Of a DNA stretch of 64,000 bases, positions 1,953-49,560 are shown one piece after another. The stretch covers positions 110,422,001-110,486,000 of the forward strand of contig OX597815.1 in NCBI GenBank assembly GCA_951406725.2, read 5' to 3'. Every line of letters starts with the position of its first letter. Positions within the stretch are counted from its first letter, which is position 1. Position numbers and translations under genes: made by a program. Origin of the DNA: Octopus vulgaris (lineage: Eukaryota). The notes below the pieces were generated by a model. The model was not told the origin of the DNA. It made no database searches and saw only the letters and a list, made by a program, of their open reading frames with translations.

Positions 1953-1954
<2 letters not shown>
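240..1954 (-). mobile_element. Highly decayed non-LTR retrotransposon (probably CRE-like), 5' part plus RT remnant; 5' end abuts (TAA)n
   Basis: Minus-strand translation gives ordered remnants LLFLPRLYLFSVAARGQGG, IPAP*GREPL, FYNGSVVFRGYKDVQLHPDMLNR, VTRRFLQNILKDF and HHKICTELSDGRP. These resemble CRE-clade RT motifs (HPPAP, F.NGSAGG..G..PQHLKDM, RRFL, GVQQGDP). Many stops and frameshifts. Confidence 0.4.

Positions 1955-2017
<63 letters not shown>
1954..2017. repeat. (TTA/TAA)n microsatellite, one flank of the Dong-like insertion
   Basis: Direct reading. Confidence 0.95.
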
Positions 2018-2018
<1 letters not shown>

Positions 2019-3155
2019 TTTTTTTTTTCTTCTTTCAAATTTTCTTACATTTCTTGCCGAGTGTCTTCCCGACTCCTAGGGCAAAGAAACTCATAGTGTA
2101 TATTGGTAGGCCATTAAACCAAACTCAGTAGTTCGTTCATTTTTTAATTTTTTTTTTAAGTTAAATTAAAATACATGAGCAGCAACAGTTCTCACATCGA
2201 CAATGCTCTTCTCAATACGTGTGATGTACCAGTTAAGACAATCTTTTGCACTTCTTGCAGGGATGGTAAGCCAGGGATCATTCTCATATAATTTTCGGTT
2301 CCCTTCTTGATCATTCCTAGTGCTCCTACGATCACTGGTATTGTAACCGCCTTGAGATGCCACATTTTCTCAATTTCAATGAGTAGGTCTTTATATTTTC
2401 TGAGCTTGTCAAACTCTTTCGCTGAGATATTATGATCACAGGGGATGCTCATGTCGATCAATAAGCAAACTTTATTGTTTTGGTCTTTCACAACAATATC
2501 TGGTTTATTGGCCTTGATGGTTCGGTCTGTATGTACTGGAAAGTCCCACAGAATGGTTACATTTTCTCCTTCAGTTACAGCCTCAGGGTGGTGATTATAC
2601 CACTTGTCGGCAGTTTTGATATTGTAATGCCGACTTATTAGCCAGTGGAGATATTGGCCAACTCTGTCATGTCTTAATTTATACTCCACTGGTGCTAAGA
2701 CTTTACATCCAGAGATTAGGTGGTTCACTGTTTCAATCATGTCGTTGCAGAATCGGCATTTTGGGTCTGCTCCATTTTTCATCACATTGGCCTGGTAGTT
2801 CCGGGTTGATAGGCTTTGGTCTTGAGCAGCCAGGATGAAACCTTCGCTCTCTGCTTTTAGCCCTGAGCTCCGCAGCCACTGATGGGTTTGCTTCTGGTCA
2901 ACATCAGCTTGTTTGCTGCGGGTCACATATTTGCCGTGCAGAGGTTTCTCCTCCCACCTATCAGCCAATTGCTTGTGCGCTTTTTTCATTGCCATCATTT
3001 TCACCTTCTTTGCAACAATAGTTGCCGTACTTCCCTCGGGTTGTTCAGTTTGGGTATCCTGCAAGAGATCAATAGCAAATTTTTTGCTTTCCTTGATGAT
3101 AGAATGAAGCTTCTTTCATCTCTCGTGATTTTCCACGAGCTTTAGCATCCAGTCA
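2018..3155 (-). mobile_element. 5'-truncated R4/Dong-clade LINE inserted in (TAA)n
   Basis: RLE-type C-terminus, 3' UTR and short A-run ending in TAA repeats; (TAA)n on both sides. Confidence 0.9.
2192..3064 (-). CDS. C-terminal part of R4/Dong ORF: CCHC zinc knuckle and PD-(D/E)xK restriction-like endonuclease (partial, no RT)
   Basis: Motifs KPLHGKY, AAQDQSL, CRFC...HLISGC, RHD, KPDIVV...IDMSIP, KLRKYKDL and PVIVGALG. Frame extends upstream to ~3154 through one TGA at 3116-3118. Confidence 0.9.
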   Translation of the reverse strand: MQDTQTEQPEGSTATIVAKKVKMMAMKKAHKQLADRWEEKPLHGKYVTRSKQADVDQKQTHQWLRSSGLKAESEGFILAAQDQSLSTRNYQANVMKNGADPKCRFCNDMIETVNHLISGCKVLAPVEYKLRHDRVGQYLHWLISRHYNIKTADKWYNHHPEAVTEGENVTILWDFPVHTDRTIKANKPDIVVKDQNNKVCLLIDMSIPCDHNISAKEFDKLRKYKDLLIEIEKMWHLKAVTIPVIVGALGMIKKGTENYMRMIPGLPSLQEVQKIVLTGTSHVLRRALSM

Positions 3156-3173
3156 TTATTATTATTATTATTA

Positions 3174-3213
<40 letters not shown>

Positions 3214-3215
3214 CA

Positions 3216-3273
<58 letters not shown>
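3155..3273. repeat. (TTA)n microsatellite
   Basis: Direct reading. Confidence 0.95.
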
Positions 3274-3476
3274 GCTGGCCGAATCGTTAGCGCGCCGGGC
3301 AAAATGCTTAGCCGTATTTCGTCCGTCTTTACTGTTTGAATTCTAATTCCGCCGAGATTGTCTTTGCCTTTCATCCTTTCAGGGTCGATAAAATAAGTAC
3401 CAGTTCACTATTGGGGCTGATATGATCAATTTGCTCCCTCCCCCTAACTCTCTGGCCTTGTACCAAAATTTGAAAT
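3274..3476 (+). mobile_element. tRNA-derived SINE family A with (TTA)n tail
   Basis: A/B-box-like head and core GCCTTTCATCCTTTC.GGGTCGATAAA.TAAGTACCAG, shared with more than 10 copies in the window; tail 3477-3573. Confidence 0.85.
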
Positions 3477-3481
3477 TATTA

Positions 3482-3575
<94 letters not shown>

Positions 3576-4367
3576 CATTATCATTTTGACAGAATATATG
3601 AAGTTGTTAGTGACTAGAATTAGATAATTTACGGATATGATATTATGTCACACGTTTCTTTGTCCAACAGCTATTTGAATTTAGTTTTACATTTCTTCCT
3701 AGTGAATTCTGTAATTAAGGATGCATTATACACTGCCACTTATCTTATCGGTTCTATCACTATATTACCTATATTACATCTTCATTAATATAACTAGAAT
3801 GCTTAGAAATACGAAACAGTTTCTTTTTTTTTTTTTTATAAATCCCCCATCATTAAATCTGCCCTTTTTTTTTTGTCTCTTCTAGCTGCTCGTAATCGCT
3901 GACATCAGTATATCCATTGAATATCCATTAACAATTTTGGTGAATATCTATCAGATATAATCTACATTATAAACATGACTTCAAGATAAATACTCTATTA
4001 TTATAAAATAAAGGCATAAATAAATATTGTTTAGATAGCTATCTTCATGAAAAGCATTATGGTTATCATTCCATCGCTATTACGGCCCATTTCTACAGTA
4101 TATCATTCGAACGTTGTATTTTAATTTCTTTAACCTTACTACCACATGTCTTATCTATTGTACACTTCTCCTCTCTTCCTTTCGTTTTTATTTGTCTTTA
4201 CATCACCTAAATCTTTTCATTCTTTTCTTCATTGATTTCTTTTTTCTACTTTTATTTATTTATTTATTTATCTGTTTTATTCGATTACCGCTTTAGCTTC
4301 CTCTCATGACATATCTCCTTATTTTTCTACTTTCACTTTATTTAATGTTTCTTATCTCGCATTGTAA

Positions 4368-20994: not shown

Positions 20995-21120
20995 ATACTT
21001 GCGGAAGAGCGTAGGCTCGAAACGTTAAGGACTTTTTCACTTCCCGAGCGTTATACTAATACATCTATTTGTTATCTATACCACCTGTCTTCGTCTTTTG
21101 TTGTTTTGTGAATTCTCCCT
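20995..21120 (+). mobile_element. Penelope-type terminal fragment with degenerate hammerhead
   Basis: gaagagcgtaggctcGAAAcgtt; same family as 45390-45495 and 52243-52460. Confidence 0.6.
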
Positions 21121-21203
21121 ACATACATACATACATACATACATACATACATACATACATACATACATACATACATACATACATACATACGTACATACAT
21201 ACA

Positions 21204-21233
<30 letters not shown>

Positions 21234-21234
<1 letters not shown>

Positions 21235-24200
21235 CAGCTAGGAGCGACAAGTAGCGTATTTGGCGTAGGAGACTATTGAAAATACGGTGGATAGTATCTC
21301 CGGCTTTGGAACCACAACTATCAACCTTGTTAAATAACTGGTTAATCTTCAGATAAATTAACTAAAGTAGATGAATTAACAGATGAATTCACGATCGTAG
21401 TGATTATCTACTGAAACTTGAATTTACCTTGCAGCGAGTTACTATAAAGTACATGGCGGACGCAACATCAACAACACTACAACCGAGGAACAGAACGAAA
21501 ACAGCTCAACAGGTAAACAGATTCTTTCTATCTGTAGCTATAGAAGAAACCGTAATTGCAAAACTCATTTTATTTAGAGTTATGAATTGAATACCGATTT
21601 ATTTAACTGCTACAAAAGCGCGAAGCAAAACTCTGCTGTAGGCTATATGAATCGATTGAAATCATTGAGACGATCTACATCCAGAATTGAATAATTTTAC
21701 AGTGAAACAATTACGCCTACAAGCAACATCTGCTGAACATAGGAAGAAAGGTAGTGACTGTAACTTTATTAAAAGGGATCAGAAATTAACCTTCTTCTCA
21801 ACACTATAAACGAAAACGAAAACTTGAACATTCCAAAAGATTCTATACTGCCTGTCAGCCAAACTACATTACTGGCTAAAGTAACTGATCCCTGTCCGCC
21901 CTACTACGAGTATGTTAAATAGCAGGCTCAACCGCAACAATCATTGTAATAGTACTAGTCAGGATTATATATTGGTGAAATAAGCCCTTACTGAAATTTT
22001 ACGAGAAAAATAACTTTGACTTTGAAGTACTCTCTCGAGGAGAGAGTATTCTCTAACGAACTAAGTAAAAAAAAACCGTGAAACGGTATTAAAAGCTGTT
22101 AACGAAATTGCAATAACACAATCTCAGCAAAGCAAACAGCTGGGAAGATGGGGATCTCGGGATGTGCTGAGCAATTGTTGATAAACAAAACTGTAATGTC
22201 AAAGGTGCAGTAGCATAGAAAGAACTTAGTTTCAATGTGGCTAGACTACAAGAAAGCCTTTGCCTTTGTTCTCCACTCATGGATGCTAGAAGCCCTTCAA
22301 ATTGCTAAAGTTCCAGTGTGCATAGTCAGAGCTGTAGCTGGCCTGACTTCATCGTGGGCCACCATTTTGAAATTTAACACAAAGAGTGACTATATTATCA
22401 CTGACAGAATACACTATCGCAGAAGCATATTCCAAAGGAACAGTCTCTCTGTGATGTTGTTTATACTTTCTGTAAATCCTTGTCATGCATGTTAAGGTAG
22501 TCTGTAGGATATCTCACTGGTTCACAAAGAAACAGAAAAATTAAATTTACACACCGTTTCTTAGTGAATGACTTGAAATTATACGCAAAGAATATGCACG
22601 AGATAAATAAGAGCTTGGCCTGGTTTCAACAATCGCAAAGGATGTAGGGTTGGAGTTTAGTCAGGATAAATGTTGCTATACGGTTGTGAAAAGAGGAAAA
22701 ACTGTAAACCAGACTAGCAACATCTTTATCAATGACTTAACTATTGTCCCTATATCTGATGAGGAAAGTTACAGCTATCTAGGAGTAGATGAAAATATAT
22801 CTTAAAATGGCACCTGTACCAAAACACGAATCACTATAGAATGTTACCACCGGAAATAGGAAATTTGGACCTCAGAACTCTTTGCATTCAATAAAACAGT
22901 AGCCCACAATGTGCTTGTAGTGCCAGTACTCATATCAACATTTGGGCTGCTTGATTGGATGCTTGATGAGATCCGAACTATTGATGTGAAAACCCGGAAG
23001 AGACTAACAAGTACACATAATTTCTACATCAACCGTGACGTAGACTGCCTTTACCTAAAACGAAAACAAGGCAGCTGAGGTTTAACATCGATTCAAACTG
23101 CCTTTGAAAGTCGTATCATATCCTTCCGGTAACATCTTTTAATCATCAAGTGTCGAAGTGCATCCCTTGACTAAATTTGCATATATGAGGCTGAGACTTG
23201 GAAAGCATATCCTAAAGCAGCATTCCTTGTCTGATAACCTTAAATACATGCCCAAAGAAGTCACACGACTCAATCGCAACATATAATCAGATGAAAAGAT
23301 GAGCCTATATGAGCAAAAAGCCATTCATAAGTATATTAGTAGAAAGCTCCTACGTGATAGTAACATTGATCCTCAAAGCAGTATATCATTGAGCAACAAC
23401 CGGATTATTACCTCTTACTTTGAAAGGTATATGTTTGCAATCCAGGAACAGGAAATATCAACCAAATACCTGATGCACAAAAGGAACAGAGATGCAGGAA
23501 AAGCAGTGAAATGTCACAATCGATGCAGATTTTGTGGAGTTAACATCGAAGATATCATCCATATCATAAGTTGTTGTCCGAAAATGTCATCACGGTATAA
23601 TCTAGTGATGAGACATAATGATGTAGCTAGGATACTGTATAAAGCGATCTGTTGAAAAGATAATCACGAGGACAGAGAAATAAGAACCTACAGTATGGTG
23701 GAAGCCATAGCCACTCATAATAAAAAGGAGTACTGGTGGAATGTTCCAATGAAAACCTCAATAAATTGTAAACACAATAGACCTGGTATCATGATTTGGG
23801 ATAGAGAAGAGAAACTGCACAGTTGTGGAAATCAACTGCTCAACAGATGTTAACATAAAGCTGAAGATCAGAGAAAAAGAGAATACTTACACTGAACTAT
23901 TGATAAATATGCAGTTGCTCTATCCAGATTATAAGTTCAAGTTTATACTTGTAATTATTGGGGCACTGGGATACGTAACACACTGCTTAAATACCAGTTT
24001 TGAGAAATTCGGCTTCTCAAAAGCAGGAAGGAGAAAGCTGATTCGAAGACTACGGATCCAAGCCATCACTGGAACTGTAAAAAACTGTAAAGCTTTCCAG
24101 AAGTTTATCATTTATGTGTATATGAGCATGTCTAGATATGCAAGTATATTCATGAGAAGACATACATAAAACAAAAAGAAATACAAATCTGCACGTGAAC

Positions 24201-24300
24201 ATATATACATGATGTTGAAATTCCAATGAAGTAGCCTTGGTTCTAGATTAGATACCGGCTCTTCATTGACAAGAAATCTTGAAATAAAACTGAATAAAGA
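21234..24300 (+). mobile_element. R4/Dong-clade LINE, both ends retained, internally deleted and decayed, embedded in (CATA)n
   Basis: N-terminal YELNTDLFNCYKSAK..VGYMNRLK; RT motifs WLDYKKAF..HSW, RSIFQRNSLS, FLVNDLKLY and YSYLG; CRFC..HIISCC..RHND; RPGIMIWD..VEINC; IIGALG. (CATA)n at 21121-21233 and 24303-24452. Confidence 0.9.
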
Positions 24301-24459
24301 TATACATACATGCATACATACGTACGTACATTCATACATACATACATACATACATACATGCATGCATGCATGCATGCATGCATACATACATACATACATA
24401 CATACATACATACATACATACATACATACATACATACATACATACATACATACTGATTT

Positions 24460-24890
24460 CGCCAGACTTTTCTTCACCACATACTGAAAATAAGCTGGTC
24501 CTCACTTCTGCCACTAAGGTGCTTGCTGGAGCAAGGATCTCATTAATCCAAGCCATGCTTATTAGGAATCAACTTATGCTGGGAAAGAGAATAAATAGTA
24601 AGCCGAAGAAAAGATGCAAAGACTCTTTAAAATCAAATTTTGAAATGCCTTAAATTATGTTACAAAATTTTTGAACCACTTTTGGCAGATGGAGAAGCAT
24701 GGAAAATGACGATTTGGAGCGCTGTTAAAGATTTTGAGCTTGGCAGAATTAAGCATGCTGAAATGAAAAAGAAATTTCGTATAAGTCTGATTAATATCAA
24801 TAGAGTTTCGAAGCTTACCCAGTCCTTCTGTAAATGTTCTTTATGCACAAAGGTTTACATATCTCACGCTGAGTAAGATATATATGAAAT
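24460..24890 (+). mobile_element. Decayed RTE/BovB-type LINE 3' part
   Basis: HILKISW, IQAMLIRNQL, GKR..SKPKKRCKDSLK, AWK..IWSAVKDFE, CKCSLC. Confidence 0.75.
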
Positions 24891-39682: not shown

Positions 39683-40245
39683 GTTTTTTTTTGGTTTCCT
39701 GTACCCATATATGCATGTATATACATGTAGATGTAGGTACGTACATATATGTATGTATATATGCATTTGTTTTATTTATTTATTTGTTATATATATATAT
39801 ATTTACATATTCGATTCGATTCGTTTGGTTTCGTTTCGTTTCTTCTTCTCTAAGCTTGTTTTTATATATATTTATATATTTATATATATTTATGGCCAAA
39901 GGAAAGCATGGACATACAGCCTACAAGAAGCTCTCAAAATCTTTCCAGCTTGAACTTCAATAAGGCAAACTGGAAACAAATTGAGAAAGAGATCCTCAAA
40001 CAAAACTGGCCTGAATGTCTCTGCTCGCCGGACATCGACATGAAACTTCAACAATTCATGTCTGTAATGCAAGCCATATGCTACAAATGTGTCCCAGAGA
40101 GAAAGGCCACTGTACACAAGAACAAAATCCCCAGAGAGAGGAAAATTTTAATGAGACGGCGTACAAAAATTTCAAATCGCCTAAACAAACAAATTGAAAG
40201 CAGTGAAAAGTCCCGCCTGAGAATAAAACTGTTGGAGATTGAAAA

Positions 40246-41607
40246 ATGTGTCTGCAACTCTCCCATGAAAAGGAAAGAGCAGACAAAGAAGCCTGGGCTA
40301 TAGACTACATAAAATCTAACCCCAGAGCTTTCTACAGGTATGCTAAAGAAACAGCTACGGTACACTGTAGGTTAGGGCCACTCCTTGAAAAGGATGGCAC
40401 ACTCACAGGAAAACCAATGAGGGTAAGTGAAATACTGAATGAGCAATTCAAGAGTGTTTTCACTCCACCCCTTGGGCATTTCCAAATCACCAATCCAACT
40501 GACTTCTATACCACTGCAGATATAAAATCAGAGGCAGCGACGATAGATCACATCGATATAAAGGAAGACGATGTAATAAAGGCTATAGATGAAATGAAAA
40601 CAGACTCAGCTACTGGCCCCGATGGATTCTCGGCAATCCTTCTAAAAGTATGTAAGAGAGTCCTAGCAAGACCACTGCAGTTCCTCTTTCAGAGCTTCCT
40701 TGCAGCTGGCAAACTTCCAAGAAAACTGAAGGAAGGTAAAATATGCCCTATTCATAAAGGAGGTAGCAGAGCGGAGGCCAAGAACTACAGACCTATCTCT
40801 CTGACCTCACACATCAGCAAGGTCATGGAACGAATAGTCAGAAGGAAACTAATCACCTTCCTTGAAGAAAATGACTTGCTGCCTGACACCCAACATGGTT
40901 TCCGACCAGGAAGAAGCTGCTTAACTCAGCTCCTACAACACTATGACTGGGTGCTGAAACAACTGCTCAACCACTCAAATGTGGAAGTCATATATCTCGA
41001 CTTTGCAAAGGCCTTTGATAAAGTCGATCACGGAATGATATGTCACAAACTGCGTGATCTTGGCATAGTTGGAAAATTGGGAGAATGGCTTCATGACTTT
41101 CTGAAGAATAGAAGTCAGGTGGTAGCAGCCAATGGGGCCACTTCCATTAACACGCAAATAGTGAGCGGTGTTCCGCAGGGCACTGTTTTGGGACCACTAC
41201 TGTTCATAATGGCCCTCTCAGACATGCCCTCAGCCACGCAGAGAGCCACGATCACAAGTTATGCAGATGATACAAAAGTTTCACAGGCAATACAGAACCC
41301 TGAAGACACTAAGCACCTGCAATGTGAGCTGGACGAAATATACAAGTGGGCCGAAAAGAATAGCATGCAGTTCAATGCTGAAAAGTTTCAAGCTTTATAC
41401 TATCAGCATGCAAAACTGAATGCAATACCCAATGAATACACTGGATCCGGAGGGATTGCAATCCCAGAGGCACAATCAGTGCGTGACCTGGGTATTCACA
41501 TGAGTGATGACGCGACCTTTCATGTACATGTTGCTAAACTGACAATGAAATGTAGACGGCTGGATGGATTCTTAGAACCTTTAGAACAAGAGAACAAGAA
41601 ACCATGA
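40246..41607 (+). pseudogene. Reverse transcriptase domain of LINE ORF2 (frameshifted at ~40250 and ~41560)
   Basis: GPDG, NYRPISLTS, QHGFRPGRSC, YLDFAKAFDKVDH, SGVPQGTVLGP, YADD at 41260-41271, RDLG. Confidence 0.95.
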
Positions 41608-42167
41608 TGGTCCTCTGGAAGACACTTGTCCTAAGCCACTTTGACTATTGCTCTCAGCTATGGTCACCATCCAGTGTCAAGTTGATCACAGAACTTGAGG
41701 CGATCCAACGAAGCTACACGAAGAAGATAGCCTCTGTGCAGCATATGAACTACTGGGAAAGACTCAAGATATTAAAGCTCTATTCCCTGGAGCGTAGGCG
41801 AGAAAGATATGCCATAATATATATCTGGAAGATCTTGGAAGGACTTGTCCCAAACTTTGGCATCGAGAGTCACACAAATGCCAGAACCGGACGCCACTGC
41901 GTAGTACCAAGGACTCCAAATTTGCCATCAAGATGTAGGACAAGATACTGTGACAGACTGGACTTCAGAGGCCCACAGCTCTTCAATATCCTCCCGAAGA
42001 ACCTGAGGGACCTGCATGGTGTAGATGCGGATGTCTTTAAAGTAGGACTGGATCTCTTCCTGTCAGGTGTCCCGGATGAACCAACTTCACGGCAGGAGGT
42101 GCAGATGAGGGCAGCTGCATCGAACTCTCTCATGCATCAGATGGCGTTTGCTAAAAAGCATCCGTGA
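41604..42167 (+). pseudogene. LINE ORF2 C-terminal region
   Basis: DYCSQLWSP, YWERLK, LYSLERRRERY; CR1-type. Confidence 0.9.
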
Positions 42168-48449: not shown

Positions 48450-49152
48450 TTTACGGGAGCATTTCGCAGTCTACGTGTTGAAAGTACTATAGACAGATGA
48501 TTCAAACGGTCACTTATTTAAATAAACCGTGTAACGGCCGAAAGTAGTTGAGATTTATTGAGCTCCTTAATATACTTCTGATCTCCCCATTCTCTATGCC
48601 TCTCGCTTCACTCTTACCTCCTCGTTACAAATTTCACCTCTCTCCCCATTGTGTTCGTTAAATCCCTTCTTCCCAGACACACGTTGACTGGCTACGGCTC
48701 AAGAATATCAGGATAGATAGTCTACTGGCATTGTTGTTCTTACTGCCAGCAATTCAGAGCCCATTGGGCAATTGAAGTAGATATGCCGAACAAGGAATGT
48801 GATAACTGTTACTACCCGTCATTTCCCCTTTATACTGATATCCGAACTCCATAAAATAGAGCATACTGTAAAATATAGGCATAACAAAATACTCTTTATA
48901 ATATTAGAAATATCAAAAGGCAAACTTGCAACAATATGAAAAAAAAAAAGAAAAATTTTCGTATGCTGTTTCATTGCTAAAGTGAGTTTGAATGCGTCGG
49001 AATTACTTTTGACTTCAGTCGACGACTATTCAAATGTTATGGTAAGCCTATTTGTAGCTTGTCTTGTGCATCTGGACTGCTGTCGCTCTCTGTACATACA
49101 GACATACATACATATATGCATGCATACATACATACATACATACATACATACA

Positions 49153-49186
<34 letters not shown>

Positions 49187-49253
49187 CATACATACATACA
49201 TACATACATACATACATACATACATACATACATACATACATGCATGCATACAT

Positions 49254-49560
49254 ACTACATATGCAATCTATTACTAGAACTGTAAAAACTGTAAAACTTA
49301 CCAGAAGTTTAACATTTAAAAATATATGAGCATGTCTAGATATGTAACTATATGCATAAGAATACATACATAAAACATATAAATCTGCACATACATACAT
49401 ACATACATACATACATACATACATACATACATACATACATACATACATACATACAAAAATAGCTTGTTGTTGATGTTGACATTCCAATAAAAGAACCTTG
49501 GATCTAGTTTAGAAACCGGTTCTTTATTGGCAAGAAATCTTGAAATAAACTAAATAATGA
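49254..49560 (+). mobile_element. 5'-truncated copy of the (CATA)n-associated R4-clade LINE
   Basis: Aligns with 24048-24300; (CATA)n on both sides. Confidence 0.9.

Follow-up and report, generated by a model that had tools for sequence, protein, structure and literature searches.

The stretch of Octopus vulgaris DNA analysed here, 64,000 nucleotides long and referred to as the window, carries at 21234..24300 of its plus strand a decayed LINE copy with both ends present, which is 82.6% and 86.4% identical to the majority sequence of its family. Its 5' flank is (CATA)n of 28.5 units (21120..21233, plus strand), the upstream half of the presumed target array, and its 3' flank is (CATA)n with CATG variants, 38 units in length (24302..24453, plus strand), so that both ends of the long copy adjoin (CATA)n as the earlier note on this DNA had stated. 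Since two tandem CATA units are found in only 1.4% of 39,840 random 40-nt windows, these flanks are far beyond chance. Farther out, at 21003-21107 and 24600-24800, lie pieces of other high-copy repeats, marked by deep contig pile-ups.

The anatomy of the element can be followed along the plus strand. The 5' UTR (21240-21400), like that of A2, can be folded into a long stem closing several hairpins, a stem without covariation support because the copies descend from one master. A frameshifted N-terminal Myb/SANT-like box of the R4/Dong type, without a zinc-finger motif, lies at 21542..21750, its type supported by HHalign against Dong-like N-termini. The positions 22110..22111 form the joint of a 913-bp internal deletion, which corresponds to positions 921-1833 of the 4057-bp majority sequence and covers the late N-terminal region and the front of the reverse transcriptase (RT); it is read as a deletion in the window copy because other genomic copies have about 900 bp extra at 22110/22111. 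The intact relative P0002 (Pfam RVT_1) reveals the missing RT front, as its residues 1-66 are unmatched in the window copy and residues 67-732 align to it in five pieces (35-46%). The RT remnant itself (22111..23100) contains several frameshifts, DYKKAF at about 22244 and, at about 22558-22575, an active-site motif changed from FFVDDL to FLVNDL. It is followed by a CCHC zinc knuckle (23524..23574), identified by motif alignment and by a zf-RVT match with an E-value of 0.033 that is under the Pfam cut-off, by the remnant of a restriction-like endonuclease (RLE; 23750..24115), in which the catalytic PD has become PG through mutation of the Asp, and by a 3' UTR (24116..24300) that ends in the family terminus ...GAATAATGA and has an internal CATA run shrunken in this copy. 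The earlier claim that the element keeps its N-terminal region, RT, CCHC and RLE stands as far as pieces of all four remain; with its deletion, its many stops and frameshifts, its mutated motifs and a divergence from the majority sequence of about 11.6% in the main block, the copy cannot be called nearly intact. It is a defunct member of an old R4/Dong-lineage LINE family with a single ORF, hereafter the CATA family.

The window holds a second, 5'-truncated copy at 49254..49560 (plus strand), which comprises majority positions 3787-4057 followed by a short CATA tract and shares 79.6% and 84.6% identity with the long copy. With (CATA)n at 49103..49253 upstream, (CATA)n on either side on the same strand and an internal run expanded to (CATA)16 at 49390-49453 (both features on the plus strand), it matches the description that had been given of it. 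Two further LINEs are present. A young canonical Dong copy on the minus strand (1954..3273), 5'-truncated, with an open C-terminal frame of 307 aa and (TAA)n on both sides, lies outside the CATA family and serves as an internal control. A CR1-like LINE remnant on the plus strand (40243-42167) has a 454-aa RT frame and a frameshifted 203-aa C-terminal frame, and ends near a short (TCAAAA)n; locus L357 is a longer copy of this LINE with an endonuclease-like front part.

A search of the genome with the 3' end of the family gave 3664 candidate copies, and the exact 30-nt family terminus occurred 658 times genome-wide (control pattern, 0). The majority sequence built from 19 long copies is 4057 bp long and has one stop-free frame of 1236 codons, which matches residues 6-1150 of protein P0200 and displays a single ORF with Myb-like box, RT, CCHC and RLE; given the C-terminal RLE and the Dong-type N-terminus, it does not follow the plan of an APE endonuclease element. 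Summed contig depth climbs steeply towards the 3' end, as 5' truncation predicts. In 44 copies the divergence from the majority sequence was 4.6-15.3% with a median of 8.3%, values biased towards young copies by exact-match selection. On the borrowed clock quoted in PMC13282606, which sets a JC distance of 0.09 at 25 Mya, this suggests a burst of the family roughly 20-30 Mya. Among named proteins, the nearest homolog comes from Octopus bimaculoides; it is broken and has 65% identity to the window piece and 83% to the majority protein, and the family is, judging from sequence similarity, common to that species. Contigs of two other organisms, B and D, match the window copy itself at approximately 98-99%, and one of them, from organism B, crosses the deletion joint; the insertion and its deletion are therefore common to close relatives. 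Among the matches listed, organism C gave family-level matches only.

The genome also contains a second old family of the CATA lineage (loci L091, L092, L093, L096, L100, L101 and L205), which has about 55% protein identity to the first and has the 3' terminus and the 3' CATA flank in common with it. The terminal 100 bp of the two are nearly the same, possibly owing to 3'-end exchange or to strong constraint on the RNA end. The 5' junctions of this sister family, known from 7 loci, were poorly delimited and are left out of all counts. Three protein searches of the animal's own genome, in which the best 150 of 20,446, 61 of 102,812 and 42 of 98,700 candidates were scored (in the second and third searches after a stricter initial screen), recovered broken copies of both families and no intact one, and the long stop-free matches examined were all TAA Dong. 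The family appears extinct in this genome, the searches being partial and their outcome evidence of rarity and not proof of absence.

Is CATA the target of the family? Of the first 72 places in the list of 658 termini we sampled 70, all on contigs C1 and C2, irrespective of their flanks; the two omitted were a close neighbour and an earlier locus. Mapping of the 5' ends against the majority sequence left 43 informative copies, truncated at positions 2501-3865, and 2 that run off the locus, while the 25 that end in or beside the CATA run of the 3' UTR were ambiguous and were set aside because this run could pose as a flank. In the 40 nt upstream of the 5' junction, at least two CATA units in tandem were found in sense orientation at 29/43 and in antisense at 1/43, and at least three units at 23/43 and 0/43, against backgrounds of 1.4% and 0.33%, respectively, in 200 kb drawn from 20 places. 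At 160-200 nt upstream, the signal had dropped to 5/43. The flanks are selective in their composition, with (CA)6 at none and (TA)6 at one of the 43, TAA at 0/43 5' flanks and 0/70 3' flanks, and (TAA)4 absent from the 5' junctions. An overlapping larger set of 110 copies, partly chosen by score, had (CATA)2 or more at 65/103 truncated and 7/7 full-length copies, with 4 in antisense, and among full-length 5' ends found genome-wide by exact 17-mers, 18 of 30 had an exact CATACATA within 12 nt upstream. The tabulated flanks thus agree with the earlier proposal of (CATA)n targeting, in that most truncated copies, with many different truncation points and in one orientation, have their 5' junctions in (CATA)n. 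The association is a family trait that goes beyond a mere tail. It is also imperfect: 14 of the 43 junctions are without (CATA)2 and 11 without even three ACAY words, which means that the preference is leaky or that the flank was removed by later rearrangement.

The young TAA Dong elements of the same genome provide a control. They form two families with intact frames of 1200-1350 aa and about 98-99.8% identity within each family, spread over many contigs (L106-L120, L208-L230); family A starts with GCTCC, like the 5' end of Bombyx Dong in a primer given by PMC3774820. After removal of 5 loci without a 3' end and 2 duplicates from the 38 examined, TAA was found at 31/31 3' ends and 14/15 truncated 5' ends and CATA at none, the 5' ends being cleaner than those of the CATA family (29/43). 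Among Dong-like metagenome loci, 21 had a 3' end that could be read, and inspection by eye showed TAA at 17 of these ends. Related elements in one genome therefore sort by repeat type, and the predicted difference in target specificity between this lineage and TAA elements is borne out. This bears on the notion that copies were inserted at random and merely survived in microsatellite-rich DNA. The genome is indeed rich in CATA arrays, with 22 in 200 kb or roughly one per 9 kb, yet the strand bias of 29 to 1, the decay of the signal within 200 nt, the fixed 3' register, the neglect of the commoner (TA)n, of which (TA)6 is about ten times as frequent in the background as (CATA)3, and the failure of TAA Dong in the same DNA ever to adjoin CATA make such passive accumulation hardly credible.

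A further explanation holds that the element itself adds CATA, as no more than a 3' tail, and that the 5' tracts stem from template jumps or from head-to-tail insertion beside older copies. Tandem arrangements do occur (L377), and at 5 of the 29 5' junctions with a CATA flank the upstream 400 nt contain family DNA. In the other 24 such DNA is absent, by which the explanation is largely refuted; together with the finding that none of 22 random CATA arrays touches the family, this means that the 5' tracts are not the tails of neighbours and that arrays abound without the element. In length, moreover, the 5' and 3' tracts are alike, with a median longest run of 3 units in each (p=0.12). A nested insertion speaks in the same direction: at L280 a full-length guest interrupts the internal CATA run of a host copy, and a few repeat units past the guest the UTR of the host continues, so that here a pre-existing run was invaded, host and guest differing at 32/281 and 13/107 aligned bases and thus being 11-12% apart. 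Taken together, we regard a tail-only origin as very improbable. Two related ideas were tried and dropped, namely that the element is the main source of the CATA arrays of the genome, ruled out by the same 0/22, and that insertion occurs near one end of the array, as long 5' tracts had suggested, which found no significant support in paired tests (p=0.12, 0.07 and 0.07). A readable target duplication was found by exact and fuzzy searches in 1 of 110 copies: at L022 more than 50 nt, made up of (CATA)n and about 50 nt of unique DNA, is present in duplicate, once on either side of the copy, as expected if the first strand was nicked within the tract and the second was cut far from it. No empty orthologous site was seen in the contigs and reads from four runs (3 reads from the raw-read run), none of which spanned the repeats.

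The 3' junction has a fixed register, with AATAATGA at the family terminus followed directly by CATA, and the first eight bases past the terminus read CATACATA in 51-61 of 70 copies per position. The final 100 bp, which separate the internal CATA run from the flanking one, are often duplicated or lost, with two or three termini in tandem at L054, L099, L293 and L299 and none at L032, L042, L044 and L047. As duplications are seen as well as losses, slippage between the two CATA runs explains both.

These observations can be read in terms of RNA-DNA pairing, in which a (CAUA)n read-through tail of the RNA would anneal to a nicked or slipped (TATG)n strand and so set the target, a weakly specific endonuclease supplying the nick. 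The match of roughly 73-87% per position over the eight nucleotides past the terminus, close to the family's own decay, would suit such pairing, as would the CATA run of the 3' UTR, at which many copies end as internal priming would give, and the lack of CATA at about a third of the 5' flanks. Against it, the tandem termini show that slippage accounts for loss and gain of the last 100 bp, some 3' junctions enter (CA)n (CACA in 4/70), and excerpts of PMC7998251 argue that the Myb-like box directs targeting in Dong. We consider pairing as the determinant of the target possible and rather unlikely, and protein recognition and RNA pairing can act together.

The reading that we prefer, and deem highly probable, is that the copies came to lie in (CATA)n in one orientation and register through the element's own protein, which recognised and nicked pre-existing CATA repeats, followed by target-primed reverse transcription. 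The location, orientation and register of the copies are direct observations. For the steps behind them we draw on what is known of R2 and R4. By this analogy, a single protein would bind (CATA)n, its N-terminal Myb-like box reading the repeat, and would nick the (TATG)n strand, always in the same phase; the nicked strand would then prime reverse transcription from the 3' end of the RNA. Frequent early stops of reverse transcription would yield the truncated copies, and the second strand would, again by analogy, be cut mostly inside the tract, in which case target duplications would be hidden.

The assignment of the family to the R4/Dong clade, as proposed earlier, is supported by its grouping with Dong-like elements and by the Dong-type Myb-like box that they have in common. 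In an RT tree of 48 rows and 338 columns (LG+G4), which contains no R4, R2, NeSL or HERO sequence, the two octopus CATA families are sisters (97/91) and form, with 20 other proteins, one branch with a stem of 0.49 and support of 100/100. Excluded from the tree were L122, for its shortness, and L100, L262 and one outgroup, which were gappy or redundant. The branch nests among Dong-like rows, beside P0120 and the Bombyx protein P0111, under a root given by the CR1-like RT of the window, a single long branch of unsure position. The nearest intact relative is P0200 with 46.6% identity; the Argonauta hians protein P0129 (GAB1597890.1), at 47.7%, falls within the branch and is not sister to the octopus families. 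P0002 matches a Bombyx Dong-like protein at an E-value of 1e-124, and P0005 matches solved R2 proteins at about 1e-31 in a different database. In support of a Dong-type N-terminus, HHalign of 14 sub-lineage against 13 Dong-like N-termini gave a probability of 97.9% and an E-value of 3.6e-13 (control 0.3%), three Dong-like rows in which the anchor motif was not found being left out. N-terminal zinc fingers are a feature of R2, unlike R4 and Dong, and no C2H2-like pattern was found in the first 420 aa of 15 aligned proteins, of which L091 and P0129 are without much of the N-terminus. The designation of the box as Myb-like is adopted by analogy from PMC7998251. An HDV-like ribozyme has been shown at the 5' end of R4 and Dong (excerpts of PMC3774820); a strict descriptor had no match here, young Dong included, a relaxed descriptor matched 15 of 30 shuffles, and Rfam gave no ribozyme match, its hits being microsatellite noise. 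From this tree, with its unsure root, we infer that the ancestral target would have been TAA and that the lineage likely switched to CATA.

Relatives of the CATA lineage were sought more widely. A metagenome scan, from which 80 of 393 loci were kept, placed only L121 and L122 in the sub-lineage, and no CATA run was present at these non-octopus loci, both on short contigs; in genome and viral collections, every sequence recovered was Dong-like or CR1-like. The Dong and CR1-like LINEs of animal type at L381-L389 come from contigs that bear bacterial-genome or viral labels, and most likely reflect contamination of those assemblies with host DNA. The protein clusters P0002-P0209 are young families of the sub-lineage in many assemblies, with 170-390 members and several 1153-aa ORFs on long contigs.

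Among known systems, Dong is the closest in design. Dong of Bombyx mori, DongAg, DongBg and Darwinula Dong1/2 have the same single ORF with a Myb/SANT-like box and no N-terminal zinc finger, the same RT, CCHC and C-terminal RLE, insertion into microsatellites with repeats on both sides and heavy 5' truncation (excerpts of PMC7998251 and PMC3812793). They differ in their target, (TAA)n in contrast to (CATA)n, and in sequence, as the CATA family has about 30% protein identity to Bombyx P0111, labelled by its sources only as 'uncharacterized' or 'RT domain-containing', and to the TAA Dong families of the same genome. R4 of nematodes belongs to the same clade and has the same domain plan (PMC7998251; PMC3774820), whereas it inserts at one site in large-subunit rDNA and not in a dispersed repeat. 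With regard to the target, the family resembles Waldo (WaldoAg1/2, WaldoFs1): PMC3812793 reports Dong at TAA and Waldo at ACAY microsatellites, CATA is the ACAT member of that class, and a few CATA-family junctions are (CA)n. At least three ACAY words were found at 32/43 5' flanks and 0 in antisense (background 3.6%), in agreement with the suggestion that an RLE lineage had converged on the target of Waldo. Waldo, which the cited paper's title assigns to the R1 clade, has an APE endonuclease, in contrast to the RLE of the CATA family, and the likeness is convergent. RLE elements of other clades use other microsatellites, as described in excerpts of PMC4640811 for the (TG)n-specific, NeSL-related Togen of fish and for microsatellite-specific HERO families, and variety of microsatellite targets among RLE elements is therefore already known.

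In octopus, the Dong-R4 class comprises 51 families and 92.7 Mb, with 5 families recently active (PMC13282606). The CATA family is probably among these 'Dong-R4' library entries, and those with recent activity are likely of the TAA type identified in this genome. Octopus Dong-R4 is named without a target in the examined parts of PMC13282606, PMC8967140 and PMC9115989; neither 'target' nor 'CATA' occurs in the main text of the first, nor 'CATA' in one of its supplements, and the excerpts of PMC3636483, PMC3774820 and PMC5035012 hold nothing on CATA targeting. In the literature searched, which did not extend to Repbase or Dfam entries, we found no description of a CATA-targeting R4 element. The earlier expectation of a new site-specific integration system needs qualification, as the partial searches yielded no active member and 'site-specific' is too strong for so common a microsatellite (22 arrays per 200 kb). 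With no active copy found here and a target about once per 9 kb, the value of the family as an insertion tool is limited. What stands is a real and well-supported preference for CATA in an apparently extinct Dong-lineage family, distinct from the conserved TAA target.

The (TAA)n target of Dong is very conserved, being used in most insects, molluscs and cnidarians (excerpts of PMC7998251), and the use of (CATA)n by a family of the Dong lineage clearly changes the target within the clade. The presence of the CATA family and its TAA relatives in one genome offers a natural comparison for target choice in RLE elements, whether by the Myb-like box, the endonuclease or RNA pairing. More speculatively, the CATA family may mark a large sub-lineage, derived from Dong, that abandoned the old TAA target and spread to a variety of new repeats, the AATAATGA at its 3' end then being a relic of a TAA-targeting ancestor; intact ORFs of 1100-1200 aa and young multi-copy families of the sub-lineage are found in many assemblies and in Argonauta hians. 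If this is true, its living members would be natural TAA/CATA protein pairs for mapping how an RLE element changes its target.
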